64,000 bases of DNA from a bacterium (GTDB lineage Bacteria > Bacteroidota > Bacteroidia > Flavobacteriales > Schleiferiaceae), in the NCBI GenBank assembly GCA_016125155.1, contig WGMI01000030.1:2079-66078 (forward strand), given 5' to 3'. The translations under genes and the position numbers were made by a program. A model generated the notes under the pieces. That model did not search any database, was not told where the DNA came from, and saw only the letters and a program-made list of their open reading frames with translations. Positions 4,225 to 61,766 of this stretch are shown piece by piece (position 1 is the stretch's first letter; each line of letters opens with the position of its first letter).

Positions 4225-5022
4225 ATGAACCTCGATCAAATCCTCTCCCAAACCGCTGATTTAGCACGGATTACCGGTCAATGGATCGCTTCAGAACAGC
4301 AGCGCTTTAGCGAGCAAAGAGTCGAAACCAAAGAACTCAACAGTTTGGTGAGCGATGTGGACCGAACAGCAGAGCGGCGGTTGGTCGAGGGACTGTCCGA
4401 ACTGCTGCCCGAAGCCGGATTTATCACAGAAGAGGAAACCGTGCGCAACGAACGCAAACCGTGGAGTTGGGTCATCGATCCTCTCGATGGTACGACCAAC
4501 TTCATCCACGGTTTGCCCATTTATGCAGTCAGCATTGGGCTGTTGCACGGAGACCAGATCGTATTGGGCGTGGTCTACGAATGCGGACGAGACGAATGCT
4601 TTACGGCCTTGCGGGGCGGTGGCGCTTTTTGCAATGGGCAGCCCATTCGCGTTTCTGGCAAAGCGACGCTGGCCGATTCGCTCTTTGCCACGGGATTTCC
4701 CTACCGGGACTACGGACGCATGGACGCCTTTGTGGCCTTGCTCACCGACTTTTTTCAAGGCAGCCGCGGACTGCGTCGGTTGGGCTCGGCGGCCACTGAT
4801 CTGGCCTGGGTAGCCTGCGGGCGCTTCGATGGTTTTTTTGAATACGGGTTGAGCCCTTGGGATGTAGCCGCCGGGAGCCTGTTGGTGGAAGAAGCCGGAG
4901 GACAGGTACGCGAATTCGACGGAGGCCTTGATTTTCTCTTCGGACAAACCCTGATTGCCTCCGGAACCGAGTTGTTTGAAGTGTTTCGAGCCACCGTGCA
5001 ACAGCGAATGGTAGGGTCCTGA
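4225..5022 (+). CDS. suhB: Inositol monophosphatase family protein (SuhB-like)
   Basis: WVIDPLDGTTNFIHGLPIYAVSIGL and the WDVAAG motif are typical of IMPase/SuhB. Confidence 0.85.
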   Translation: MNLDQILSQTADLARITGQWIASEQQRFSEQRVETKELNSLVSDVDRTAERRLVEGLSELLPEAGFITEEETVRNERKPWSWVIDPLDGTTNFIHGLPIYAVSIGLLHGDQIVLGVVYECGRDECFTALRGGGAFCNGQPIRVSGKATLADSLFATGFPYRDYGRMDAFVALLTDFFQGSRGLRRLGSAATDLAWVACGRFDGFFEYGLSPWDVAAGSLLVEEAGGQVREFDGGLDFLFGQTLIASGTELFEVFRATVQQRMVGS

Positions 5023-5079
5023 AAACGGATCGTGCAACTTTTGCGGCCACTATTTTGTTCCGTGATTCAACCCTTTTAA

Positions 5080-5541
5080 TTGAGTGTCATGCTTCGATGG
5101 AATGATGTGCTCCACCGCGCCCAACACGGCAACCCTAAACCGGCAACCCGGGTTGAGAAGACGGTGGAAGCATGGAAGGCCGAACTCGATCCCGAGGTGT
5201 TTCGCATTGCGCGATTGCACGGAACCGAACGCCCGCACAGCTCCGACTATTGCACCCGCTTTGAACCGGGACTGTATGCCTGCGCCTGTTGCCACACCCT
5301 GCTGTTTGACGCTGACCAAAAGTTTGAATCGGGAACCGGTTGGCCCAGTTTTACCCAACCCGCCGATCCGGATGTCATTCGCTATGTTCGAGACACTTCT
5401 TTTGGCATGATTCGCGTCGAAACCCTTTGCTCGGTCTGCGACGCCCACCTTGGCCACGTTTTTCCCGACGGCCCTCCCCCTTCGGGTCTTCGCTACTGCA
5501 TGAATGGGTTGGCGTTGGAAAAGCGAGAAGAACAACGCTGA
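5080..5541 (+). CDS. msrB: Peptide-methionine (R)-S-oxide reductase
   Basis: GLYACACCHTLLF..GTGWPSF..CSVCDAHLGHVFPDGP..GLRYCMNG shows two CxxC zinc motifs and the catalytic Cys region of MsrB. Confidence 0.9.
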   Translation: MSVMLRWNDVLHRAQHGNPKPATRVEKTVEAWKAELDPEVFRIARLHGTERPHSSDYCTRFEPGLYACACCHTLLFDADQKFESGTGWPSFTQPADPDVIRYVRDTSFGMIRVETLCSVCDAHLGHVFPDGPPPSGLRYCMNGLALEKREEQR

Positions 5542-5566
5542 CCCCCTTTTGGTCCGGCCCCACAAC

Positions 5567-5597
5567 AAAAAACCCCGGTCTCCCGGGGCTTTTTTTT
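5567..5597. terminator. Bidirectional rho-independent terminator between convergent msrB and the OmpA-family gene
   Basis: An A-run, then stem CCCCGG (5573..5578) pairing with CCGGGG (5583..5588) around a 4-nt loop, then a T-run at 5590..5597. Confidence 0.55.
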
Positions 5598-5635
5598 GAC
5601 TCACAGTGCAAGCGGTGAGTTGAAGGTGTTGGCGT

Positions 5636-8170
5636 TTACTTCACAAAGATATACAAACCAGGCTGTAGGTCTTTGTCCTTCAAATCGCCGTTGAGTTCCT
5701 TGAGCACTTTGTCGTCCATGTTCAATTTCTTGGCGATGGCCTTCAGACTGGTTTCTCCGGTTTGGACCTGATAGCGCTTGGAATCGAAATCGGAATAGTC
5801 TCCGTCTTTGGTCACCTTGAGTTCGAGCCCTTCAAAAACCCTGACCCCGCGCAATCCGTTGTTGAGCTTTTTGAGATCGGCTACGCTGATGCCGTACTCC
5901 TTGGCAATCTTCGCAAAGTTGTCGCCAGCCACACACGTGTGTATCTGTCCTTTTTGGCCCGCTTCTGCCTTGGCACCTGCTCCGGCCGCGGCTCCCGTCC
6001 CTACGGCGGCTCCTGTTCCCGTTCCCTGCTCTTCGGGAGCCGGCTGGTTGGGCACAAAGTCGTCGCGCAACACCTTGAAGTCGGTGCGTCGGTTGACCTG
6101 GTTGGCCACTTCCTGCAGATTGGGTGAAAGCGTCTTAATGTAATTCTCCGTCAAGGTGGCCCCGGTTTTCAACTGCCCTGCACCAAGTCCCTTATAGTTC
6201 TCTGGAATGGTAAAGGGCTCTGTCTCACCCTTGCCAACGGCTACCAAACGGCCCGACTCAATGCCTTTGCTGATCAGATAATCCACGCAGGAGTTCGCCC
6301 GGTTTTGAGAAAGTGTATTGTTCTTTTCGTCCGTGTCCCGATAGTCGGTGTGCGAACGAAGCTCAATCACCACCGTAGGGTTGTTTTTCAAAATAGTCAC
6401 CACCGAATCGAGCGCCTGCATCGACTCCGGACGCAAATCCCATTTGGCCAAATCGAACAGGACATTCGGCAATACGATGGGCACCTCGATGGGCTCCATG
6501 CCTTTGTCCAATTTGAGGGTATGCAGATAAAGGTTGTTGGCCGCATCGTATTCGAAGGCATTGAAGGGAACGCCGACCGTAGTCACATAACCCGCGTTGT
6601 TCAAGAATTTCTTCTTCTCGAAATTCAAGGTGTAGGCCACGTTTTCTTTCACCTTGTCTTTCTCGAAAACATATCGACCACTGCCATCGGAATTGGCGAC
6701 CACCGAACTCCCGTCAGAGCCGTCCAAACGCACCGTTACCTGTGGAATCGGCTTGCCGTCTTTGGTGCTGGTCACTACCCCTTCGATCTGGAAGTTGAGC
6801 GGTACTTCATAAATGCTGTAGATGTCGTCGCTGCCCCGACCGTCTTTGCGGTTGGAGGTAATGTAGCCCCGGCGCGCGCCCCCGGATTCGAGGATGATGG
6901 CAAAATCGTCGGCCTCCGTATTGATCGGATACTTCATGTTCTCCGCAGGACCCGTGGGCATGCCGTCGGCGCCCACCGGAACCCGGAAAATGTCCTGAGA
7001 ACCCATGCCGGGAAGCCCATCGGAAGAGAAATAGAGATAACCATCGTCGTGGGCAAAGGGAAACAGCTCATCGCCCTCTGTATTCACCTGGGGACCGAGG
7101 TTAGTGGCTTCTTTCCACTTCTTTTCCCGGCGATCGAAGGTGGTCACCCAGAGGTCTTTACCCCCTTTGGCCCCGGGCAAATCTCCCGAGAAATACAACA
7201 ACTTGTCGTCGGGGCTCAAGCTGGGGTGTCCCACCGAGTACGTAGAATCGGGAGCCAACACCACGAGTTCGGGCTCGGCCCAAGTTTGGCCTCTGCGCTC
7301 GGTGAAGTAAATGGCGCAGCCCAAAACCTGGCGCTTTTCATTCCGACAGCGGGTAAAATACATCTCCTTGCGGCGGCTGTCGAAGGCAAGAGTGCCCTCG
7401 TGGTGCTCGGTATTGATCATTTCGTCCAAAGCAGTGGGCGTGGCCCATTTGCTTTCTTCGACCGGGCCTTTACTCTTGCCCTTTCCCTTGGTGGTCTTGC
7501 GCTCACTTTTGGAGGACCAAATGTCCATAAAGCCTTGTCCGGTCCATCCATCTTCCTTCTTGCCGATGCCTCCTTCGCGGGACGAGGTCAGATAGATCTC
7601 ATTGTATTCCCCTGCCCTTCCGGCCCAAGCAGGCGCCATATCGCGGGCTGTCGTATTCAATTCCTTGACGTTGGTCACCTGGTAACGACTCGGATTGTTT
7701 TTCCATTCGGCTGCGGCTTTGGAACTCGCTATGCCCGTTTCCGCCCGCTTGTCGGAGGGATGCGCCTTGCGCAATTCCTCATAAGCTACGGTGGCGTCTT
7801 CGTACTTGCCCTGAGACTTCATCATTTCGGCCTCCCAATATTGCGCATCGGCACCGTAGCCCATTTTGGCTGCCTTTTTGAACTGGGCTTCCGCGTTTTT
7901 GTAGTCCGACATATTGCGGTAGCACTGACCCATCCAATAGGTAATCTCGGTCTTCATTTCCCGACTGTCCTCTTTGGCAAACGCTTCTTTGAGGGCGTCA
8001 AGAGCCAGAGCATATTCCTTGGCATCGTAATATTCCTTCGCTTTGGCGGTGGCTTTCGCCAACTTCGGCTCGGTCGGCTCGTCTCCCCCTTTGGGCTGAG
8101 CGTAGGCCAACGAACTTACAATCAGAGTAATCGCAAAAAGGGCGAAGCGGAAAACAGGGGGTTTGATCAT
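5636..8170 (-). CDS. OmpA-family outer-membrane/peptidoglycan-associated protein with TPR, PD40-type beta-propeller repeats and two C-terminal LysM modules
   Basis: Start set at MIKPPVFRFALFAITLIVSSLAYAQ (signal peptide; ATG 8170). TPR-like N-terminus (YYDAKEYALALDAL..). Repeated S.DG..LYF.S tolB/PD40-like motifs. OmpA_C core NVLFDLAKWDLRPES..ELRSHTDYRDTDEKNNTLSQNRANSCVDYL. A Gly/Ala linker, then two LysM-like segments (HTCVAGDNFAKIAKEYGISVADLKKLN and YQVQTGETSLKAIAKKLNMDDKVLKELN). Confidence 0.8.
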   Translation of the reverse strand: MIKPPVFRFALFAITLIVSSLAYAQPKGGDEPTEPKLAKATAKAKEYYDAKEYALALDALKEAFAKEDSREMKTEITYWMGQCYRNMSDYKNAEAQFKKAAKMGYGADAQYWEAEMMKSQGKYEDATVAYEELRKAHPSDKRAETGIASSKAAAEWKNNPSRYQVTNVKELNTTARDMAPAWAGRAGEYNEIYLTSSREGGIGKKEDGWTGQGFMDIWSSKSERKTTKGKGKSKGPVEESKWATPTALDEMINTEHHEGTLAFDSRRKEMYFTRCRNEKRQVLGCAIYFTERRGQTWAEPELVVLAPDSTYSVGHPSLSPDDKLLYFSGDLPGAKGGKDLWVTTFDRREKKWKEATNLGPQVNTEGDELFPFAHDDGYLYFSSDGLPGMGSQDIFRVPVGADGMPTGPAENMKYPINTEADDFAIILESGGARRGYITSNRKDGRGSDDIYSIYEVPLNFQIEGVVTSTKDGKPIPQVTVRLDGSDGSSVVANSDGSGRYVFEKDKVKENVAYTLNFEKKKFLNNAGYVTTVGVPFNAFEYDAANNLYLHTLKLDKGMEPIEVPIVLPNVLFDLAKWDLRPESMQALDSVVTILKNNPTVVIELRSHTDYRDTDEKNNTLSQNRANSCVDYLISKGIESGRLVAVGKGETEPFTIPENYKGLGAGQLKTGATLTENYIKTLSPNLQEVANQVNRRTDFKVLRDDFVPNQPAPEEQGTGTGAAVGTGAAAGAGAKAEAGQKGQIHTCVAGDNFAKIAKEYGISVADLKKLNNGLRGVRVFEGLELKVTKDGDYSDFDSKRYQVQTGETSLKAIAKKLNMDDKVLKELNGDLKDKDLQPGLYIFVK

Positions 8171-11376: not shown

Positions 11377-12278
11377 TCAAGATCCGTGTTCGGAAAGCGC
11401 ATTTGGTGGGCTCTGCGCGTATTGGTCAACAGTCCGGCCCGGGTCATGGGCCCCACTCCTCCGGGAACGGGGGTGATCCACGAAGCCACAGGGGCGACGG
11501 CTTCAAAATCGACATCGCCCGAAAGCCGAAATCCGCTCTTGCGACTGGCATCGGCTACCCGGGTAATTCCGACGTCGATTACTACAGCTCCGGGCTTGAC
11601 CAGATCGCGACCGACAAAACCGGGCCGTCCGAGTGCGGCCACCAGGATGTCGGCACTCTGGCAATGCGCACGAAGATGGACGCTGCGGCTGTGGCATAGG
11701 GTCACCGTGGCATTGCCCGGACGGGCGTTGCGCGACAACAGGATGCTCATGGGGCGCCCCACGATGTTGCTCCGCCCAATCACCACGACATGCTTGCCCT
11801 CGGTTTCGACCCCGGTGCGCTCCAACATTTCGAGGATTCCGGCGGGGGTGGCGGGCAAAAAGCTCGACAATCCGAGACACATCTTGCCTACGTTCACGGG
11901 ATGAAATCCATCGACATCTTTGTCGGGATCGATGGAAAAGAGAATCTTTTGTTCGTCGATGTGCGCTGGGAGCGGGAGCTGAACAATAAATCCATCGACG
12001 CCCGGATTTTCGTTGAGCGATCGCACCACGCGGAGCAACTCCTGCTCCGACACATGGGCCGAAAGACGAATGACTTCGGAGTCGAAGCCCACCTCGGCAC
12101 AATCTTGGGCTTTGGCCGCCACATAGGTCTCGCTGGCCCCGTCGTTGCCGACCAAAATGGCGACCAATTTGGGCGGGCGATGTCCCTGCCGCACTGCGCG
12201 TTCTACATAGCCGCGTACCTCTTCCCGGATTTCCGAGGCCAAGGCCTTGCCATCGAGTATTTGAGCTTGGTCGTTCAA
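11373..12278 (-). CDS. folD: Bifunctional methylenetetrahydrofolate dehydrogenase/cyclohydrolase
   Basis: ILDGKALASEIREEV.., VGNDGASETYV, VVVIGRSNIVGRPM and PVPGGVGPMT motifs. It has 4-nt overlaps with ffh on one side and tatA on the other. Confidence 0.95.
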   Translation of the reverse strand: MNDQAQILDGKALASEIREEVRGYVERAVRQGHRPPKLVAILVGNDGASETYVAAKAQDCAEVGFDSEVIRLSAHVSEQELLRVVRSLNENPGVDGFIVQLPLPAHIDEQKILFSIDPDKDVDGFHPVNVGKMCLGLSSFLPATPAGILEMLERTGVETEGKHVVVIGRSNIVGRPMSILLSRNARPGNATVTLCHSRSVHLRAHCQSADILVAALGRPGFVGRDLVKPGAVVIDVGITRVADASRKSGFRLSGDVDFEAVAPVASWITPVPGGVGPMTRAGLLTNTRRAHQMRFPNTDLE

Positions 12279-13600
12279 CGTCTTCCCATCATTGAAGCGA
12301 GCTGTTTGGCGCCTCCTCCTTGCATTTTCTTCATCATCTTGCTCATGTCTTCAAACTGCTTGATGAGTTTGTTGACTTCGTTGATGCCCGTTCCCGAACC
12401 CGCTGCAATCCGCTTGCGCCGAGACCCATTGATTAAGGAAGGATTCTGCCGTTCCTGAGGGGTCATGCTGTGGATCATGGCCTCGATGTGCTTGAAGGCG
12501 TCGTCGCTGATGTCGAGGTCTTTGACGGCCTTGCCTACCCCGGGGATCATCCCCATCAGGTCTTTCATCGAGCCCATTTTCTTGATCTGTTGGATCTGGG
12601 CGAGGAAGTCGTCGAAGCCGAATTTGTTGGTGGCGATTTTTTTGGAAAGCGCCCTGGCCTGCTCGGCGTCGAATTGCTCTTGGGCGCGTTCTACGAGGCT
12701 GACTACATCGCCCATCCCGAGAATGCGGTCGGCCATCCGATCGGGATAGAATACGTCGAGGGCGTCGCTTTTCTCGCCGGTTCCGACGAATTTGATCGGT
12801 TTGTCGACGACGCTTCGGATGCTGAGCGCGGCTCCGCCCCGGGTGTCTCCATCGAGTTTGGTGAGGACGACCCCGTCGTAGGCGATGGCGTCGTGAAAGG
12901 CTTTGGCGGTGTTGACGGCGTCTTGCCCGGTCATGGAGTCGACCACAAACAGGGTTTCGCTCGGTTTGAGTTCGCGATGGAGGCGGACGATTTCGTCCAT
13001 CATTTCGGCATCTACGGCGAGTCGGCCGGCGGTGTCGACGATCAGGGTGCTGAATCCTTTGGCCTTGGCGTGGGCTACGGCTTGGGTGGCAATGTGTACG
13101 GGATCGGTCGATCCAGGTACCGAAAACACTTCGACCCCGACTTGTTCGCCGAGTATTTTGAGCTGATCGATGGCTGCGGGGCGGTAGACGTCGCAGGCGG
13201 CCAGCAGCACTTTTTGGCTGCGTTTGCGCTTGAGAAAAGAGGCGAGTTTGCCGCTAAAGGTGGTTTTGCCGGATCCTTGCAATCCTGCTACGAGCACGAT
13301 GGCGGGTTGGCCTTTGAGGTTGAGTTCGGCGGCCTGACCGCCCATCATCCGGGCCATTTCGTCCCGGACTATTTTGATCATCAACTGTCCGGGTTGCAGA
13401 CTGGTGATGACTTTTTGCCCCAGGGCTTGTTCTTTGACCCGATCGACGAAGTCCTTGGCCACTTTGTAGCTTACATCGGCTTCGACCAAGGCGCGCCGCA
13501 CTTCTTTGAGGGTCTCGGCTACGTTGATTTCTGTAATCTGCCCGCGGCCTTTAAGCAAGTGGAATGCGCCTTCGAGGCGTTCGCTCAGCTTTTCAAACAT
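12275..13600 (-). CDS. ffh: Signal recognition particle protein Ffh
   Basis: MFEKLSERLE.., GLQGSGKTTFSGKLA (P-loop), DTAGRL, TKLDGDTRGGAALS, and a Met-rich M domain at the C-terminus. Confidence 0.95.
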   Translation of the reverse strand: MFEKLSERLEGAFHLLKGRGQITEINVAETLKEVRRALVEADVSYKVAKDFVDRVKEQALGQKVITSLQPGQLMIKIVRDEMARMMGGQAAELNLKGQPAIVLVAGLQGSGKTTFSGKLASFLKRKRSQKVLLAACDVYRPAAIDQLKILGEQVGVEVFSVPGSTDPVHIATQAVAHAKAKGFSTLIVDTAGRLAVDAEMMDEIVRLHRELKPSETLFVVDSMTGQDAVNTAKAFHDAIAYDGVVLTKLDGDTRGGAALSIRSVVDKPIKFVGTGEKSDALDVFYPDRMADRILGMGDVVSLVERAQEQFDAEQARALSKKIATNKFGFDDFLAQIQQIKKMGSMKDLMGMIPGVGKAVKDLDISDDAFKHIEAMIHSMTPQERQNPSLINGSRRKRIAAGSGTGINEVNKLIKQFEDMSKMMKKMQGGGAKQLASMMGRR

Positions 13601-13733
13601 GCTTTTCTACCAATGTAGGACAAAGGTACGGAGGGGAAGGGGGATGATTATGGTCGTCGGGTTCCGGGCGTGCTGCAGCGCTTGCGGGCCCTCATTATTG
13701 CAGTGGCGAAAACAGACTGAAGCTCCATCGCTT

Positions 13734-13830
13734 CCATAACTGCGCTACGGCAGTGGCTCTTCAATTTAAAGCTCCAATCTGGCTAATATGAGGTTTATTG
13801 TGCAACAGTTACGTCTGTTATAGCCAGTGG
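13734..13830 (-). repeat. attC-like element C (distal end of cassette 2)
   Basis: The minus strand reads CTATAAC (13823..13817) ... GTTATGG (13740..13734). The two 7-mers can pair over their full length, allowing one G-U pair. The inner stem is weak. Confidence 0.35.
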
Positions 13831-13836
13831 ATTTTG

Positions 13837-14808
13837 TCATTCTTGGACTGTCGGCATATGTTTTTCCTTGCAATATTTTTCTACTTCTGTGTCGTTTGCA
13901 AAGTAGTCGTCACAAAAATCGTCAAGCTCTTTTTCTGCACCTGAAACATACCTTTCACTTGCTGTCACTATTTGTTCAGTTTTCTCAATGAACTTGTTGA
14001 AATTATCATTCATATTGCAGCGTTTGTCAATCGTTTTAAAATCCAAGTCATGATATGTTGCAGGAAAAAATATTTTGCTTTGGTAAGGATTTGAATTGAG
14101 TTCTATTATTCCAATTCCAAACGATTGATTTAGTCGTTCCATTTCTTCGTTCAAACTGTCGCTGAACTCAAAGGCTACCAAGTAACCATAGTTTGCCCAA
14201 CTAGAATTTGAAACTGCTTGAAAGAATGCTTTTTTAAGTTCGATGTCGCTGTTGATTTCCTTTTTCAATTCGTATGAACTCATTTTAAAGGTGTCAACAC
14301 GATTGATAGATTTTAAAAAGTTTTGGCTGGCTTTAGTCTGCCTGTTCAAAAACTTAATCCCAACCATATCTGGGTGTGTCCAAATTTAGTTGTTGTCCTT
14401 GCCGTTTGATTGTTCGTGAAAAATTGTCTTCGAGTAGGTGTCAGTATTTTTTAAGTAGCTAGTTAAAAGTTTATGTAAATCTCTTTCGTTAAAGGATTTT
14501 ACTTTGTCCATCTTTGTAACTTTAGTTATTTGTATTTCGGTTTCACCTGATAAAATGCCAATACCAATGTTTTGTTCGTTTTTTGTCAAGTAGTAGGAGT
14601 AAGTCCCACCTTCTTGTTTAATACGCTTGACTCTTGTGTCACCATTACGAATGAAGTCACCAAGACAAGCCGAAACTGTAGAGCCAGGAGTTTTACCTCC
14701 TCCAAAGTCAAAATACTTTTTAGTAAGAATGTGATTTAAAACTTCTGAGTAATTCGTCAATTTACCAATGTCTTCTAAACTTTTTATTACGGCTTCTTTT
14801 AATGTCAT
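13837..14808 (-). pseudogene. HARE-HTH / PD-(D/E)xK restriction-endonuclease-like protein interrupted by one in-frame TAA
   Basis: ORFs 14386..14808 and 13837..14367 are in the same frame. The junction reads ..SNGKDNN-TAA-IWTHPDMVGIKF... The N-terminus (LKEAVIKSLEDIG..YSEVLNHIL..GKTPGSTVSACL..D.RVKRI) looks like a HARE-type winged helix. ERDLHKLL..., then HPD...(about 30 aa)...YELKK fits a PD-ExK nuclease core. Confidence 0.7.
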
Positions 14809-14852
14809 TGTCTGTTCGTTTCAATATTACAATTCGGTCGTCCTACCATTCG

Positions 14853-14985
14853 CTTTAACGGTTTCGGGCTTTGCGTTCGGGCGGGTTTCGAGGCACAAAG
14901 TTTCAATTTACTACTAAAGTTCATTAGAAGCACAAAGTTCCAAGTTTGCACGTCAGCCCGCCTGACGCAAAACCCGTGTTAGCAC
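14853..14985 (-). repeat. attC-like element B between the two cassette ORFs
   Basis: The minus strand reads TGCTAAC (14985..14979), then a stem arm at 14977..14958 (CGGGTTTTGCGTCAGGCGGG). This pairs with 14885..14865 (CCCGCCCGAACGCAAAGCCCG) with bulged bases. Then comes a spacer and GTTAAAG (14859..14853). The loop carries two GCACAAAGTTYCAA direct repeats (14893..14906 and 14930..14943 on the + strand). Confidence 0.5.
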
Positions 14986-14991
14986 CAGTAT

Positions 14992-15936
14992 TTATTTTCT
15001 TTTGAATGTTTTTACAGCTTTTTTAATCTCTTCTATACTCTTATCGGACTCGTCATTTGTTGTTCCAAAAAGTATGTAATAAAGCTTGTCGCTGAATAAA
15101 ATTACTTGATAAATATTTTCTGTTTCATCCGTTTTTTTACTTTTCCCTTTTGCGTAAATCTCGTAACCTGAAATTCCGTCTATTATAGTAATTTCGTTTG
15201 TATATTCTATATTCTCTATTTCAATAGGTGTTTGTCTTAGTCTATTAATGCAGAACAGCTTTTTGTCTTCTGTCGTGATTTGAGAGAAAGACTTTGCAAC
15301 TACTAAGTTGGTTTTGTCGCTTGAAGTAGTTGGAACTTGTCCGTCAACGGAAAATGTTAAAGAGTTTGACATACTTTTTCCGAATTTCAATTTAGTTTCA
15401 GAAATGTCAATTGAGTAATCAAGAGCTTCAAATGGATTTATTTTTTTGTCAGCTTCGTAGAAAACAGTCAACATAGATTTTTTGATTTCATCACCAACCT
15501 TTTTTAAGTTTTCAGGATAAACACCATTTATCATTATGGTTTCAGTGTCTGTCCCAAATAAGAAAATACATTTTGTGTAAATGTTACCATAAGGATTTTG
15601 TGTTCCTGTAACGAAAATTGCTGGAAGTGAATTTATTGTCAGATTTTCAATTTTCTTTACTTCAACGCCTTTACTTAGCATATTTTCTTTTGTAATTCCT
15701 TTGGAAGTCTCAGAATAAGGTCAGTGAATGTCCAAAACCATTATACTTGAACCACTTTCTGTTTGTTGAAGTCCAAGAAAATTAAGTCCATCCGTAAATC
15801 CTTTGGGTGGAATTAGGCTAATTTTCGTCCCTTTAATATTTTTATGTTCATCAGACAGTTTGTTTTCAATTTTATTCTGTCCCCAAACGGTCAAAGAGAT
15901 AATAACTAAAAATGTTGTAAGAATTTGTTTTGTCAT
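14992..15936 (-). pseudogene. Secreted protein of unknown function interrupted by one in-frame TGA
   Basis: ORFs 15721..15936 (signal peptide MTKQILTTFLVIISLTVWGQ) and 14992..15681 share a frame. The junction reads ..IMVLDIH-TGA-PYSETSKGITKENMLSKGVEV.. with no other stop. No family recognised. Confidence 0.6.
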
Positions 15937-16322
15937 AATGTGTTGTTTTAATATTGGTGCTAACTAACTTACAGGCGCCATATCCTCACCTCATCTGCGC
16001 ATATGCCGTTGTACAGGCGTGATACCGTTGCGCTTTAAGGGCCCAAGATAATGGAAAGAACCTCAAAGGTCATGGAACAAACTCCGAAATTGCTCAAAAC
16101 CACGTGTACTGACCGGTTTGTCGTTTTCATAAGGAATCATGCGATTGGTGGTGCCCTTGCCACCCTGTGCCCACTGCCTAGCGCCCACGGCCTTGTGCGC
16201 TCGGTGTGATCCGGGAAAAGTATGTATTGGATTTCACCCAACTGTGCGGTACAGATCACCTAGGGCAGGGACGCATCCCATCCGCTCCGGATAAGCCATG
16301 CTGAACAGCCCCCCAGCATGGC

Positions 16323-16382
16323 GCGGAGCTGTGTATATTTCATCCAATTAAGGCGGAGCTGTGTATATTTCATCCAATTAAG
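16323..16382. repeat. Perfect 30-bp tandem duplication (2 copies)
   Basis: GCGGAGCTGTGTATATTTCATCCAATTAAG occurs at 16323..16352 and again, identically, at 16353..16382. This is about 50 bp upstream of the ATG at 16433. Confidence 0.9.
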
Positions 16383-16432
16383 AAAGATTCAATTCGAATT
16401 TCATGTTTCAGACTCGCCCAAAGCGGTAGATT

Positions 16433-17109
16433 GTGCTCGGATTCCTCCTCCTGCTTTCGGTCTCGGCCACGGCCTATTTCCGTGTCCAGCCCCAGCATTA
16501 CAAGCAAGCGCGTTACTGGCTGTACAGAACCGGTCAATCCGGCTGGAATCGATTGATGCGGGGCGTATCGTGGAAGACCGTCAAAACCGAAAAAGTCAAA
16601 GCGTCTCGATTTCGGAGCAATGCGTATACCTTGCACCGAGAATCGGCCAAAGCGCTTCAGCCGATGCTCATCCAAGGCGAAAAAGACCTCGAAACGCTGC
16701 GCAAGAAAGGCCGATTGGTTTCAGTGGAAAACGACCGTGGATATCGGGTGGCCTCAATGAACTTTGGAGAGCCACTGTTGACCCCGAGGCCAAGGCCCTG
16801 CTTCAACGACTGGGAACGTCCTTTTACGAAGAAAGCAGGGGGAGTTATTTTGTCGTAACCTCCATGACCCGAACGGTTTCAGACCAAAAGCGACTCACCC
16901 AAGTCAACGACAATGCCACCCGAAACCTGAGCACCCACAGCCACGGGGTTTCGTTCGACATTTCCTACACCCGGTTCAACGGCAACCGAGGACACAACCC
17001 CGAACTTCAACGAACCCTTGAACAAGTGCTCAGCGAACTGCAAAAAGAAGGTGCGCTGTATGCCATCTATGAGAAGAACGTTGCGTGTTTTCACGTAACG
17101 GTGCGGTGA
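16433..17109 (+). pseudogene. LAS/M15-type (VanY-like SxHxxGxxxD motif) peptidase-like membrane-anchored protein, frameshifted; possibly the DUF5715 family (name from memory)
   Basis: Frame of 16433 gives a TM segment then ..ENDRGYRVASMNFGEPLLTP. The other frame (C-terminal part of ORF 16318..17109) gives PEAKALLQRLGTSFYEESRGSYFVVTSMTRTVSDQKRL..NLSTHSHGVSFDISY. The two plausible halves join at a C-run at 16782..16785. Confidence 0.55.
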
Positions 17110-32659: not shown

Positions 32660-34576
32660 ATGAGCAAAATCAAGTATTCAATTTTCGCAGCCGGCCTGAT
32701 CGGTCTCGCTGTGGGGTCTTGCAAGCAAGATCTCGACTCTTCGATCCAAACGCCCGGTACATTCAATTATGAAACCAGCGGAACGGTTCGAGTTGCACTG
32801 AACGGCCAAGACTTTATGGCCGGTGCTGTATTTAGCATCTACACTGCCGCTCCCCAGGACGGTGGCAAGTTGATCGCTACAGCCATGCTCGACGAAAACG
32901 GTCGTTTCGAGAGCAACTTCCGCTTGGCCACCGCGGCTCAATCGGTCTACCTCGTGTCAAACTACATCGGTATGCCCGGCAACTTCCCCATCGCCATCAG
33001 CAATGGTGTTGCCAGCGTAGACTTCAACCGCACCGGTGCTGGTAAAAACGGAGGCAGCATCCAAGGTCCTTCGGCCAAGGTTGCCGCTACGGTCTACGAC
33101 TACTTCGGTACGTACAACGCTTTGGGTGTGCCTTCTTATTTGTTGGCTCCCGATGCCATCACTCCTTTGTTGTTGGCCCAAATCAATGCTACCCTTCCCG
33201 AATACGTAGACAACTCTGCTCTGGCCGTTCTTGGCAACAGCGACCTCGTTGTTACGCAGACCACGGAAGTGTTCTTTACGTGGGTTTTCGAAGGCGCCGG
33301 TTTCCAGAATGCCGTAGGTTTCTACACCTATAACACGGGTACTCCCCCCGTCAACGTTACCGACATCGACAGCGTTCAGATCATCATCCCAAACTCTTCG
33401 TTTTCGCCCCAGGGTGGGTTGGTTGCCGGTGACAAGATCAGCCTCGGTGTGATTCCCGCTGGAAAGTCGATCGGTTGGGTATTGTTCAAGTATGGTTGGA
33501 ACAGCGGTACGCAAACCGTAAACTTCAACAACCCCAAGGTGTACTCGAACCCCGACTTCAACGACGAAGCTACGCCCGCCAACCGTCGCCACGTGGTCAA
33601 CCTGTACCACGCTCCTCAGAACCTGATCTTGGTTGGTTTCGAAGACCAAGACCGCGACAACCCCGCTACCGACAACGACTTCAACGACCTGTTGTTCTAC
33701 ATTACGACCAGCGTACCCAACGGTTGCAACACCAGCGGTTTCCCCTTCGTGAACACCCAGGGTGGAACGGACAGCGACAACGACGGTGTCAACGACCAGT
33801 TCGACGCTTTCCCGAACGATCCCACCAAGGCCTTCATCTGCTACCATCCGTTTGACGGTGGTTTCAACAGCGTTGCTTTCGAAGATTTGTGGCCCGCTCA
33901 AGGCGACTACGACTTCAACGACCTCGTGATGGACATGAACTATGCCGCTTATATGGACGTGAACTTCGACGTGGTCGAGATCGACGTAACCGGCTATGTT
34001 CGTCATATCGGTGCCTCGTACAACAACGGTTATGGCATCCGCTGGCCCTTCCCTTACAGCGACGTTGCCGGCGTAACCGGTAGCCAATTGCTGCACGGCA
34101 TCGTTACGGTGAATGGAAATGGAACGGAAGCGGGTCAAACCGACGCCGTGAGCATGATGTTTGACGATGCTTTCGACCACGAAAACGACACCGTCAAGTT
34201 GAACATCTTGATGAGCAACCCTTATCCGCTCACCCAGCTGCAAGCCAACATGTGCGATCCCTTCCTCTTCGTAGACGGCAACCGCGGACGTGAGGTCCAC
34301 CTCGCCGGCAAGCAGCCTACCGATCTGGCCAATGTCGCCCTGTTCGGCACCGGTGACGACGCTACCGTACTCCCCGGCTTCACCTACAAGAATGGTCAGA
34401 ACATGCCTTGGGCCATCGAAATCAACCACAACTTCTCTGTGGTAGTCGAGAAAGTCCGCATCGAAGCTGCCTACTTGAAGTTCGCCGACTGGGCTCAGAG
34501 CAACGGTGCCTTGTTCCCCGATTGGTACTACAACCTGTCGCCCTTCTATCGCAACAACGCCAACCTGATCCCCTAA
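32660..34576 (+). CDS. LruC-domain lipoprotein (DUF4114-like N-region, Asp-rich Ca-binding-type repeat, LruC domain)
   Basis: Start set at MSKIKYSIFAAGLIGLAVGSC. VFFTWVFEGAGFQNAVGFYTY..GFEDQDRDNPATDNDFNDLLFYI; DSDNDGVNDQFDAFPNDP; VAFEDLWPAQGDYDFNDLVMDMNY (LruC-domain signature, from memory). Confidence 0.8.
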   Translation: MSKIKYSIFAAGLIGLAVGSCKQDLDSSIQTPGTFNYETSGTVRVALNGQDFMAGAVFSIYTAAPQDGGKLIATAMLDENGRFESNFRLATAAQSVYLVSNYIGMPGNFPIAISNGVASVDFNRTGAGKNGGSIQGPSAKVAATVYDYFGTYNALGVPSYLLAPDAITPLLLAQINATLPEYVDNSALAVLGNSDLVVTQTTEVFFTWVFEGAGFQNAVGFYTYNTGTPPVNVTDIDSVQIIIPNSSFSPQGGLVAGDKISLGVIPAGKSIGWVLFKYGWNSGTQTVNFNNPKVYSNPDFNDEATPANRRHVVNLYHAPQNLILVGFEDQDRDNPATDNDFNDLLFYITTSVPNGCNTSGFPFVNTQGGTDSDNDGVNDQFDAFPNDPTKAFICYHPFDGGFNSVAFEDLWPAQGDYDFNDLVMDMNYAAYMDVNFDVVEIDVTGYVRHIGASYNNGYGIRWPFPYSDVAGVTGSQLLHGIVTVNGNGTEAGQTDAVSMMFDDAFDHENDTVKLNILMSNPYPLTQLQANMCDPFLFVDGNRGREVHLAGKQPTDLANVALFGTGDDATVLPGFTYKNGQNMPWAIEINHNFSVVVEKVRIEAAYLKFADWAQSNGALFPDWYYNLSPFYRNNANLIP

Positions 34577-58911: not shown

Positions 58912-59750
58912 CGTTCCTTTTGAGGGCTGAAATAGTGCAGAAAATAGCGCATTTGAAGAGCGAACCGCTTCCAAAAGGCATTCCATAGGCTTCCGTCCAA
59001 CTCCGTGCGCCTCATGCTGGTCCAAATTTGACCGTGTACGGAACGCACCATGCGCACCGCACCGAGCTTGCCCAATTCAAACGCCAAAGTTCCGTCGGAA
59101 CCGCGCACTACGTTGACATCATAGCCCCCAACCTGCACGGCCAAATCCTTCGGGAATCCCATCCCCGCCCCTCCACAATTCAAATGAGGACGCTTAAAAT
59201 CCTTGATCCAAATACCTACGTATTTCAGCCATTGGTATACCATCAAACCCAATGGATATCGGCCGTCTTGGGTAAAAAAAGCATGGAGCGCATACGTGCA
59301 GGCTATTTGGGGTTTATCGAGGGCTTTTACCATGGTTTCTACCCATAGTTCGGGGTACACTGTATCGGCATCGGCAGAGAGAATAAACCGTCCTCTGGCT
59401 TCAACCACCCCTCTTTGCCGAGCCCATGCATAGCCCTGATTGGATTCGGAGACATATCGAGCCCCTAAAGCGCGAATGGTCTCGGCCGTTCGATCGGCCG
59501 AATTGTTGTCTACCACAATGATCTCCATAGGATAGCGAGAACGCTGTTGCGACAAACTGCTCAAGGCGGCCACAATGTTGCGCTCTTCATTCCAGGCAAT
59601 CATGCAGACAGAAACAACCGGGGCCTCCGATTGCAATTGCCGCAATCGCGCTCGAATGCCCTCCAATTCTTCTTTTTGAACATCGGCAATGGTCTTGCCG
59701 AAATAATTCAAATGAGACTGAACCGAACGACTGGGTTTAAATCGCAGCAT
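58908..59750 (-). CDS. Family 2 glycosyltransferase
   Basis: VSVCMIAWNEERNI..IIVVDNNSADRT..ILSADADTVYPE. Confidence 0.8.
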   Translation of the reverse strand: MLRFKPSRSVQSHLNYFGKTIADVQKEELEGIRARLRQLQSEAPVVSVCMIAWNEERNIVAALSSLSQQRSRYPMEIIVVDNNSADRTAETIRALGARYVSESNQGYAWARQRGVVEARGRFILSADADTVYPELWVETMVKALDKPQIACTYALHAFFTQDGRYPLGLMVYQWLKYVGIWIKDFKRPHLNCGGAGMGFPKDLAVQVGGYDVNVVRGSDGTLAFELGKLGAVRMVRSVHGQIWTSMRRTELDGSLWNAFWKRFALQMRYFLHYFSPQKER

Positions 59751-60882
59751 CGTAAACTTCTTTGTAGTGCTCGAGCACGCTTTTCGCCATACGTTTCCGA
59801 CTAAAGAATTCTACTCGTTTCAAACCCATTGTTCTCATGCGATGTCGCTCGTCGGGATCGTTCAAAACGGTCCGCAACCCGCGCTTCATATCTTCGATAT
59901 CATCAGGATTGACATAATGGGCAGCCTCCATTCCAATTTCCGGCATGGACGAAGTATTTGAACAAATCACCGGACAACCACTGGCCATGCCTTCAAGAAT
60001 AGGAATCCCGAAGCTTTCTCGCTTAGAAGGATAATACAAGGCTTCGGCCAGATTCAATACAACAGGCAAATCTCGATTGTCCAGATACCCCGTGAAATGA
60101 AGGCGGCCTTCCAATAGACGACGCTGCTCCAACCCAAACCATAGAATTAAAACGGAAGGATCCAAATCACCTAAAACCAGCGTTATACGTGAATCTAAAT
60201 CGGGCAATACACTCAAAAAACTCTCTATGGCCATGCGGGTATTCTTCTTGGGATCTGTATTGCCCAACATCAACACAAAGCGATCGGGAAGTCCATATCG
60301 CTTTCGTACCTCCATTTTAACCTTTTCCTCCTTGACTACTCCAAAATGAGCGCCTACTGAATTGTAGACCACTTTGACTTTCGATAGATCTAGAAAGGGA
60401 AATAAACGGGCAAAACTGGACGCTTCAAACTGAGAAACAGTGAGAATTCTCTTGGCCTTATTCAAAACACTCCGGACGATCACGCGTCGATAGTAATTTC
60501 CGAAGCGCTGATAACTCGTATACCCCTTTGCCAAAAGAGGATGCGTTTCAAAATAAATGAGATCATGAACTGTGACAAGCAGCGGAACAGTAGTATTCAA
60601 GGGCGCCGTATTGGCGGTGCAATGGAGCACGTCTATTCTATATTTCTCGATCAACTTTGGCAATGTCCATTGTTCCCACCATGCATACATTCCTTTGCGC
60701 ACAATAACAGTAAAGTTGTCTGCTTTCGGTATGCGGTCCAGTTCTTCGCCTGAATTGACAAAGATGAAATATTCATTGTCGTGGTCTATCTCTTGAAGTC
60801 CTTGAATCAATTCCAGCGCAACGAAATCCATACCGTGCTTTTGCCGGCGTCCTAGTCTTTGTGCTTCGATACCAATCCTCAT
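59737..60882 (-). CDS. Family 4 (GT-B, 'glycosyl transferases group 1') glycosyltransferase
   Basis: Start set at MRIGIEAQRL. C-terminal PSKRESFGIPILEGMASGCPVICSNTSSMPEI (the EX7E region). Confidence 0.8.
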   Translation of the reverse strand: MRIGIEAQRLGRRQKHGMDFVALELIQGLQEIDHDNEYFIFVNSGEELDRIPKADNFTVIVRKGMYAWWEQWTLPKLIEKYRIDVLHCTANTAPLNTTVPLLVTVHDLIYFETHPLLAKGYTSYQRFGNYYRRVIVRSVLNKAKRILTVSQFEASSFARLFPFLDLSKVKVVYNSVGAHFGVVKEEKVKMEVRKRYGLPDRFVLMLGNTDPKKNTRMAIESFLSVLPDLDSRITLVLGDLDPSVLILWFGLEQRRLLEGRLHFTGYLDNRDLPVVLNLAEALYYPSKRESFGIPILEGMASGCPVICSNTSSMPEIGMEAAHYVNPDDIEDMKRGLRTVLNDPDERHRMRTMGLKRVEFFSRKRMAKSVLEHYKEVYDAAI

Positions 60883-60887
60883 AATAA

Positions 60888-61766
60888 TTAGTGTATTATA
60901 TTCCAATAAACACCCTTGAGGAAGGCCCCGGCAAGGGCGAATTCACCCTTGACTAAGTATACAATGAGTCCTTTGGGTACACTGACAAAACAAAAAAACA
61001 GCATGGAAATCAATCGCTCTTTAAAGGGAAAATTTCTCCGTGCATAGAGCAATCGATTGCGGGTCATATAATAAATTTTCAACGAACTCATCTTCCCGAC
61101 TGAAACCGACTCCTTGTGGTGAACCAGCGAAGTACCAACATAAATAACCTGATAACCCGATCGAACAATGCGGCTACACCAATCCAATTCCTCGTAGTAC
61201 AGAAAGTAATCGTCGGACATCGTCCCGACCGTCTCTATGACCTCTCTGGAAACCACCATGGCTGCTCCATGAATGAAGGCCGTAGGTCGAACATCCAAAT
61301 ATTGTCCGACATCTTTTTGGCGAAACCCTATGGTTGCATTGCGGATGGTAAACGGACTCATGGGAGTACTTCCCGCATATTGAATCAAACCAGGTTCGCC
61401 GAAATAATGGATGCGCGGACTCACCATCCCTACCTTCGGAAATTCCTCAAACGCTTTGATTAAAGGCTCGAGAAAATCCGGTTCAACTTCGACGTCATTA
61501 TTGATGAACAATACATAGGCACCTGAGCAAAAAGGCAAACCGTAATTATTCCCCCCGGCAAAGCCCAAATTTTTTCCCGTTAAGAGCAGCCGAATTTCTG
61601 AAAAGGACTCTGACAACCAGCGACAGTCTTCCCGAGATCCATTGTCTACGACAACAATTTCTATGTTGGGGTACCGAATTCTGCGCAGCGAACGCAACAA
61701 ATCGGCCGTAACTGCGGCCTGATTGTAGTTCACTGTCAGAATACTGACCAAGGGCGCATCTGACAA
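60888..61766 (-). CDS. Family 2 glycosyltransferase (rhamnosyltransferase-like)
   Basis: VSILTVNYNQAAVT..IVVVDNGSREDC..GFAGGNNYG..LFINNDVEV..EELDWCSR. Confidence 0.8.
   Translation of the reverse strand: MSDAPLVSILTVNYNQAAVTADLLRSLRRIRYPNIEIVVVDNGSREDCRWLSESFSEIRLLLTGKNLGFAGGNNYGLPFCSGAYVLFINNDVEVEPDFLEPLIKAFEEFPKVGMVSPRIHYFGEPGLIQYAGSTPMSPFTIRNATIGFRQKDVGQYLDVRPTAFIHGAAMVVSREVIETVGTMSDDYFLYYEELDWCSRIVRSGYQVIYVGTSLVHHKESVSVGKMSSLKIYYMTRNRLLYARRNFPFKERLISMLFFCFVSVPKGLIVYLVKGEFALAGAFLKGVYWNIIH

Follow-up and report, generated by a model that had tools for sequence, protein, structure and literature searches.

The window, a stretch of 64,000 nucleotides of contig WGMI01000030.1 from a bacterium of the Schleiferiaceae (Bacteroidota), contains a low-GC insert between ffh and a DUF5715 gene. 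The G+C content is 33.7% in the insert and 54.3% in the remaining window, and no other trough of such depth occurs in the 64 kb. An earlier interpretation made from the letters alone, here called the sequence-only reading, had noticed this abrupt fall and proposed a small array of two integron cassettes without an integrase, that is, a CALIN (cluster of attC sites lacking an integron integrase). The insert carries two genes on the minus strand, each followed by a foldable element (Table 1). Our analysis makes it likely that it is a two-cassette remnant of an integron-like but non-canonical cassette system, which is found throughout the Bacteroidota and is associated with recombinases related to IntI and XerA that lack the IntI-specific insertion.

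Table 1. Positions of the insert, its parts and its flanking genes in the 64-kb window
Feature	Position	Strand	Description
DUF5715 gene	16318..17109	+	one flank of the insert
Left junction CTGTAAGTTA	15965..15974	-	directly 5' of the GTT that opens cassette 1
Cassette 1 (integron convention)	14859..15963	-	opens at the TT of GTTAGCACC, includes ORF1 and the hairpin, and closes at the G of GTTAAAG
ORF1 pseudogene	14992..15936	-	signal-peptide protein; in-frame TGA at 15723..15721
Element 1	14853..14984	-	132-nt attC-like imperfect hairpin, TGCTAAC-A-(stem/loop/stem)-AAACC-GTTAAAG
Cassette 2 body	13817..14858	-	opens at the TT of GTTAAAGCGAATGG and reaches the conserved end CCACTGGCTATAAC
ORF2 pseudogene	13837..14808	-	'COG2958 family'; weak N-terminal HARE-HTH match; in-frame TAA at 14388..14386
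Second element (unverified)	13701..13816	-	3' of CTATAAC; foldable; its last bases, GTCT-GTTTTCGCCACTG, pair with the cassette end
ffh	13600..12275	-	other flank of the insert

Cassette boundaries and broken genes

The first bases of cassette 1 (15964..15950) are the inverse complement of the cassette end at 14992..14978 in 14 of 15 positions, and by simple arithmetic a match of this quality for a fixed 15-mer within 1.2 kb is expected with a chance of about 5e-5. The start of cassette 2 (14859..14845) agrees with its own inverted end (13831..13817) at 11 of 15 positions. Both relationships had been recognized in the sequence-only reading, which took them as boundaries of the kind produced by crossover at G-TT; the GTTAGCA that it had found upstream of ORF1 is also there, at 15964..15958, one base away from where it had been placed. 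Such boundaries recur in other genomes, together with the cassettes themselves. The orthologous ORF1 gene of loci L268 and L269 is flanked by the same limits, starting with GTTAGCACCAAT and ending with ACTGGTGCTAAC, and orthologous cassette 2 copies in about 80 other loci start with GTTATAGCCAATGG and end with CCACTGGCTATAAC. The start of cassette 2 in the window has drifted from GTTATAGCCAATGG at two positions, while across dozens of unrelated neighbourhoods the start and end of the ORF2 cassette are unchanged. The proposal that the insert holds two mobile gene cassettes is thus upheld.

Neither gene is intact, although both had been presented as open. The homologues of ORF1, found in Algoriphagus, Crocinitomicaceae, Hanamia, Fluviicola and other hosts, are uninterrupted proteins of 313 aa with identities of up to 91%; where they read DIPGPY, the window reads DIH*PY (the asterisk marks the stop). 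ORF2 has thousands of uninterrupted homologues of 323 aa with 80-91% identity in several Bacteroidota orders, often on very short contigs. Its stop codon is a change from CAA to TAA at a glutamine that is invariant in 90 of 90 homologues, and it is also present in a second assembly (L131, see below). No family of Pfam, NCBIfam or PADLOC scored above threshold for either protein. ORF1 and ORF2 are therefore regarded as horizontally acquired genes that are dead in this lineage. With two cassettes, no integrase nearby and both genes pseudogenized, the locus is a relic, which is probably inert now; it has little functional consequence in the window, and what makes it valuable is the access that it gives to the family described below.

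The cassettes that carry homologues of ORF1 and ORF2 often have defence-like neighbours (L001-L003 and L269), including HipA/HipB, HEPN/NTase, type I restriction-modification, MotA/OmpA-like (Zorya-type), SduA_C and DEAD/ResIII helicase genes, and the arrays may be reservoirs of defence genes.

The insert is specific to this lineage, since two relatives with 90% identical Ffh keep the DUF5715-ffh gene order without cassettes, the two genes being separated by 243 bp in one (L214) and 819 bp in the other (L212). The comparison of the ffh flank proposed in the sequence-only reading thus recovered the insert-free order, but not the exact empty site: homology of the window to these closest relatives ends at about 13648 on the ffh side and about 16353 on the opposite side, and a reconstruction at the base-pair level failed because the intergenic DNA has diverged.

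The abrupt compositional step, together with the many homologues on short contigs, could also be expected of an assembly chimera in which foreign low-GC DNA was joined to a high-GC contig. This is hardly credible, as the independent Logan assembly L131, which differs slightly from the window, joins cassette 2 to the same ffh-folD-tatA-glnN neighbourhood and has the same nonsense codon in ORF2; the left junction is confirmed by the window alone.

The 132-nt hairpin family and its arrays

Element 1 folds, as DNA, into a stable hairpin that begins right after the stop codon of ORF1. Its boxes TGCTAAC and GTTAAAG and an imperfect stem of about 21 bp had been read correctly from the letters, whereas its length is 132 nt (14984..14853) and not 133. 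A profile hidden Markov model (HMM) built from 39 copies of other genomes, with the window copy left out, matches it at 14983..14855 with E = 2.8e-38 (126 bits), and the covariance model (CM) scores it at 142.9 bits. Neither model finds a further genuine copy in the 64-kb window. A collapsed-loop hairpin at 33328..33362 (CTATAACACGGG-N7-CCCGTCAACGTTACCG, CM E = 0.07) was rejected as a chance match, being inside a native ORF of normal G+C content. The same element, with the form AAC-A-CGGGTTTTGCGTCAGGCGGG ... CCCGCCCGAACGCAAAGCCCG-AAAMC-GTT, is present beside ORF2 homologues both in Cecembia and in metagenomes.

A pattern scan of one genome per species, a metagenome sample centred on ORF2 and a scan of IMG/VR gave a total of 294 copies in 178 loci, nearly all from Bacteroidota. 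The sampled loci around pattern matches are short, so the linkage frequencies given here are lower bounds. According to record titles, the 48 titled genome loci comprise 42 Bacteroidota, two Ignavibacteriaceae, three metagenome-assembled genomes labelled as other phyla and one 'uncultured bacterium'. The length is exactly 132 nt in 78 of 135 distinct copies. Full elements were also present in 48 of the 51 'viral' contigs of IMG/VR that matched the core pattern (L217-L267), with 79 copies and up to four per locus, and two contigs have the head recombinase. Further examples of arrays are CP058707.1 (L036), JAFDYB010000071.1 (L059) and CP021904.1.

The copies are co-oriented in all 69 loci that contain two or more of them, and the ORFs run in the same direction, ending a few nucleotides short of the elements. 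Among 43 distinct adjacent pairs, a cassette end matched the start of its own cassette at a mean of 8.1 of the 12 positions beyond GTT, compared with 4.8 of 12 for the start of the next cassette; matches at eight or more positions were seen for the own end in 27 pairs and for the neighbouring cassette in four. In every one of the 27 pairs that match well, position 11 is a mismatch in which the start side has A, and cassette 1 of the window conforms to this. This complementarity, which is far beyond chance, indicates unit boundaries of the integron-cassette type.

None of 40 diverse copies deviates from AAC and GTT. The bases around them fit RYYYAAC and GTTRRRY loosely, so that of the attC-like layout suggested at first the triplets hold well and the flanks only approximately. 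Between these triplets, the hairpin combines a 1x5 asymmetric loop with a small internal loop, a T.G / C.A position that is conserved, and a terminal loop that is conserved as well. Compensatory changes occur in 12 of the 14 pairs predicted by RNAalifold, the proportion of paired cells in the stem is 95.4% compared with 81.1% in shuffles, and the stem scores 0.322 for covariation, where shuffles give 0.086 and slid controls no more than 0.06. The hairpin stem is under structural selection.

The T.G pair lies in the inner stem, on the cassette (sense) strand, in 36 of 40 copies (alignment columns 13/120), and on each strand one wobble and one mismatch are conserved; the T.G pair and the position-11 mismatch may fill the role that extrahelical bases have in attC. 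The loop (14896..14885 in the window, columns ~84-95) is conserved, with repeated GTGC motifs and the motif AnnTTTGTGC. The -7 promoter element of Bacteroidota is TAnnTTTG. The loop motif resembles it in sequence and might act as an outward promoter for the following cassette.

These features could also be explained by a palindrome that functions as RNA, of the terminator type or of the REP/BIME type (repetitive extragenic palindrome/bacterial interspersed mosaic element), next to genes acquired by ordinary horizontal transfer and irrelevant to their mobility. The position of the element immediately past the stop codon, its stable fold, the T.G wobble conserved on the sense strand and the conserved AnnTTTGTGC loop are what such a role would predict. 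Nevertheless, there is a single copy in 64 kb, no Rfam family was matched, the same gene recurs with identical boundaries in dozens of unrelated contexts, a cassette-specific complementarity of 15 nt is unexpected for terminators, and a recombinase stands at the head of the arrays in 20 of 20 cases (see below). We consider this explanation quite unlikely.

A second possibility is that each cassette is a transposable unit with terminal inverted repeats, such as a miniature inverted-repeat transposable element (MITE) or a passenger transposon, mobilized by an unlinked transposase that prefers to insert next to hairpins. The inverted repeat of 14/15 around ORF1, and ancestrally of 13-14/15 around ORF2, would agree with this, but no target-site duplications were seen and no transposase was found in the window or in the arrays. 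Moreover, the repeats always abut the AAC/GTT of a hairpin, and array polarity and the head recombinase would be left unexplained, which makes this possibility very unlikely. The sequence-only reading had itself named a genome-wide REP/MITE family as the outcome that would count against cassettes; the single copy in 64 kb and the co-orientation in 69 of 69 loci are not those of such a family.

Insertions without an integrase beside housekeeping genes, which had been thought unusual, are common in this family; examples are locus L007, after a serine dehydratase gene, and L268, after sdhB. A candidate cassette insertion/deletion between L008 and L010 was not clean, as the downstream flank is merely 94.6% identical.

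At least eight different inner-hairpin sequences come after the ORF2 cassette (L132-L211), whose start and end stay the same, and several hairpin subtypes are mixed in a single array (L154). Hairpins and cassettes may therefore reassort by exchange on both flanks of the hairpin, which would set them apart from integron cassettes, and if this is the origin of the different combinations, cassette and site would be separable modules.

In L100 (two sites), L205, L133/L134 and L089, the sequence after the last hairpin is AAAAC-GTGTGTGACTTGA. In L100 and L205, group II introns (RF01999, 75-98 bits; RF00029, 64 bits) begin exactly at the 3' boundary of the hairpin, AAAAC-GTGTG, on the cassette strand.

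The second element of the window could not be recognized as a member of the family. It gave no match to the family HMM or CM, and beyond the conserved end CCACTGGCTATAAC the hexamer AGACGT is all that it has in common with family hairpins. An alignment with the hairpins that share this hexamer (MAFFT) showed no homology past it, so the candidate of a decayed family member found no confirmation there, and the local similarity of its interior to the family was equalled by 77 of 200 shuffles. Of the boxes proposed for a second attC site, CTATAAC is found at 13823..13817 and not at 13830, while GTTATGG is present at 13740..13734, where a role as the R' box is unsupported. A better inverted repeat, matching at 14 of 17 positions, has its arms at 13829..13813 and 13717..13701, which would put the pairing GTT at 13713..13711 instead of 13740..13738; by simple arithmetic, a fixed cassette end would find such a match by chance within 150 nt with a probability of about 2e-4. 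The fold has a z-score of -2.3 on the bottom strand and -1.0 on the top strand. A 20-mer of this element also occurs in two IMG/VR contigs, but only this short stretch, which would translate as ITDVTVG, is common to them and the flanks are unlike, so it was set aside as a chance match. The proposed second attC is therefore reduced to the conserved cassette end plus 6 nt, and is regarded as an unverified or decayed site.

Head recombinases and the relation to integrons

Tyrosine recombinases were found in array-bearing loci by tblastn with an IntI1 sequence whose identity was validated with NCBIfam (799 bits against PRK15417). With one XerD-like gene (L130) left out, all 20 are situated at the 5' head of their array, relative to the direction of the cassettes; they occur, for example, in Parapedobacter soli KCTC 12984 (L058) and Terrimonas sp. 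NS-102 (L078). For the 18 with recorded strand, 13 are co-oriented with the cassettes and five are divergent. They carry the PF00589 and PF13495 domains, and their best models are TIGR02249 (166-232 bits, with a cut-off of 265) and NF040815 (XerA/integron-integrase). The TIGR02249 match is split in two, with model positions 177-240 left unaligned, and the alignment to VchIntIA (PDB 2A3V) is likewise in two pieces, skipping approximately residues 214-248. The skipped region is the IntI-specific insertion that defines integron integrases (PMC9668308), and it is absent from every array-linked recombinase found. The most divergent head recombinase (L117) is directly followed by an ORF of 385 aa (4635-5792), which might be an IS91-type transposase like those beside the known IntI relatives without the insertion.

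When the recombinase gene is co-oriented, the first cassette begins ~100-200 bp past its stop codon, after a core of the form ATATAA(A/G)YRA-GTT, which is also present at 9 of 12 first cassettes without a recombinase. A position weight matrix derived from 10 recombinase-adjacent heads placed the CTGTAAGTTA-GTT junction of the window in the top 0.76% of its 2227 GTT sites. The left junction therefore weakly resembles an array-head (attI-like) core, with modest support. As the sequence-only reading had noted for the surroundings of the insert, no tyrosine recombinase is encoded in the window, where no match across the 64 kb was better than E = 0.037.

Several properties of the family are those of integron cassettes, their attC sites and CALINs (PMC4889954, PMC9024848): co-oriented single-gene units, imperfect hairpins bounded by AAC and GTT, first bases that are the inverse complement of the proximal end of the own site, a tyrosine recombinase at the head that is divergent or co-oriented, and clusters without recombinase elsewhere in chromosomes. 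These likenesses, to which the group II introns of L100 and L205, with their identical position within the site, can be added as an echo of the IIC-attC introns of integrons (PMC7923331), would suit a canonical CALIN, in which the attC sites would be of the usual kind and a true IntI, encoded at another place in the genome, would act on them. However, all linked recombinases lack the IntI-specific insertion and score below the TIGR02249 cut-off, and the geometry of the site appears to be different. It has a 1x5 asymmetric loop instead of attC's unpaired central spacer (UCS) and its two extrahelical G/T bases, a 15-bp outer stem and a conserved loop where attC has a variable terminal structure (PMC7439510). 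Its length is fixed at 132 nt, and the complementarity, in which position 11 is an obligatory mismatch, covers ~15 nt, compared with 7 nt in integrons. The host phylum is also regarded as almost devoid of integrons: in surveys with IntegronFinder, Bacteroidetes yielded nothing but In0 elements and a single integron of Salinibacter (PMC9024848), and a 2024 preprint puts Bacteroidota among clades 'previously found without any integrons'. A canonical CALIN, the form in which the array had first been proposed, is accordingly unlikely. The hairpin system works like an integron and departs from integrons in two defining features, the IntI insertion and, as it appears, the canonical attC geometry.

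Other known systems resemble it in part. The VCR attC sites of the sedentary chromosomal integrons of Vibrio are also long (~120-130 nt), highly conserved repeats between cassettes of unknown and often defence-like function, but the hairpin family mixes subtypes within an array, as in L154, and its subtypes are common to Bacteroidota orders and not species-specific. For the 'integron-like' subgroup of simple tyrosine recombinases, Smyshlyaev et al. (bioRxiv 542381) note that the relatives closest to IntI do without the insertion, and the contexts in which they describe them are those of IS91 and IS3. Like these and archaeal XerA, the head recombinases score best against integron-integrase/XerA models and have PF13495 and PF00589, but they stand at the head of hairpin-separated cassette arrays, and only the L117 copy is followed by an ORF that could encode a transposase.

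Integrase-mediated cassette insertion at genomic secondary sites (bioRxiv 2022.09.11.507474) similarly places cassettes off-platform beside housekeeping genes with GTT at the junction; it concerns IntI1/IntIA and canonical attC sites, whereas the left junction here resembles the head core of its own family only weakly. The known IIC-attC introns use the bottom strand of attC, opposite to the cassettes (PMC7923331), while the introns of L100 and L205 lie on the cassette strand; the window has none. No published description of the hairpin/recombinase family was found in the full-text literature searched, which was that outside subscription journals, and this absence is no proof that it is unpublished.

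By analogy with integrons, a mechanism can be proposed for the likely origin of the insert from this cassette system. The unit consists of G-TT and ~12 cassette-specific bases, one gene, the inverse complement of its own start plus AAC, and then a conserved hairpin module of ~118 nt within the 132-nt site; in other genomes, such units form the co-oriented arrays behind an IntI/XerA-related recombinase without the IntI-specific insertion. The recombinase would act on one folded strand of the hairpin, with strand exchange presumably at G-TT, as in integrons (PMC7439510). In the excised circle, the two cassette ends would pair as an outer stem of 15 bp beside AAC/GTT and the conserved inner stem, and the folded site appears to resemble a full tyrosine-recombinase core, with an arm, an asymmetric central region and another arm. 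The circle could then re-insert at an array-head core or at a secondary site that looks like one. In this lineage, two cassettes would have landed between the DUF5715 gene and ffh, moved by an enzyme that was probably of this kind, and the nonsense mutations and the decay of the distal site would have followed.

Several points weigh against this interpretation. The mechanism is drawn entirely by analogy with integrons, and the link between recombinase and array consists of adjacency and polarity only. The window, which covers 64 kb of the host genome, is without any recombinase, and as the second element is unrecognizable, element 1 is the one verified site of the insert. In addition, the conserved loop and the sense-strand T.G wobble would also suit a role at the RNA level.

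More broadly, it is conceivable, though somewhat short of probable, that Bacteroidota and Ignavibacteriota harbour a widespread and unrecognized second kind of integron, with arrays of 132-nt hairpins and an IntI-related recombinase whose I2 insertion was never acquired or was lost, and of which the window would be a decayed orphan. Integrons are held to be nearly absent from Bacteroidota, and the IntI insertion is regarded both as defining and as enabling recombination at folded single-strand sites. Polar arrays run by a relative of IntI without this insertion would make the origin of integrons directly testable. A large pool of cassette genes, many in defence-island contexts, has probably been missed by current integron finders, and the family could explain some of the low-GC 'orphan' genes beside housekeeping genes in Bacteroidota.

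Flanks and remainder of the window

The stretch at 15965..16360 showed no recombinase remnant or attI homology by blastn and tblastx. No tRNA gene that could have served as integration target is present in the window, and Rfam, which has no model of attC, gave no relevant match, either in the insert region at E <= 10 or in the whole window at gathering thresholds.

A perfect tandem duplication of 30 bp (GCGGAGCTGTGTATATTTCATCCAATTAAG x2) lies at 16323-16382, upstream of or within the annotated 5' end of the DUF5715 gene, and a single related copy of this repeat is found in relative L212. The DUF5715 ORF call of 263 aa is probably overlong, its homologues having 232-235 aa. A milder second dip in G+C content (43-44%) at 60000-61200 covers glycosyltransferase-like ORFs on the minus strand (59737..60906 and 60888..61766), and may be a horizontally acquired segment of a polysaccharide locus.

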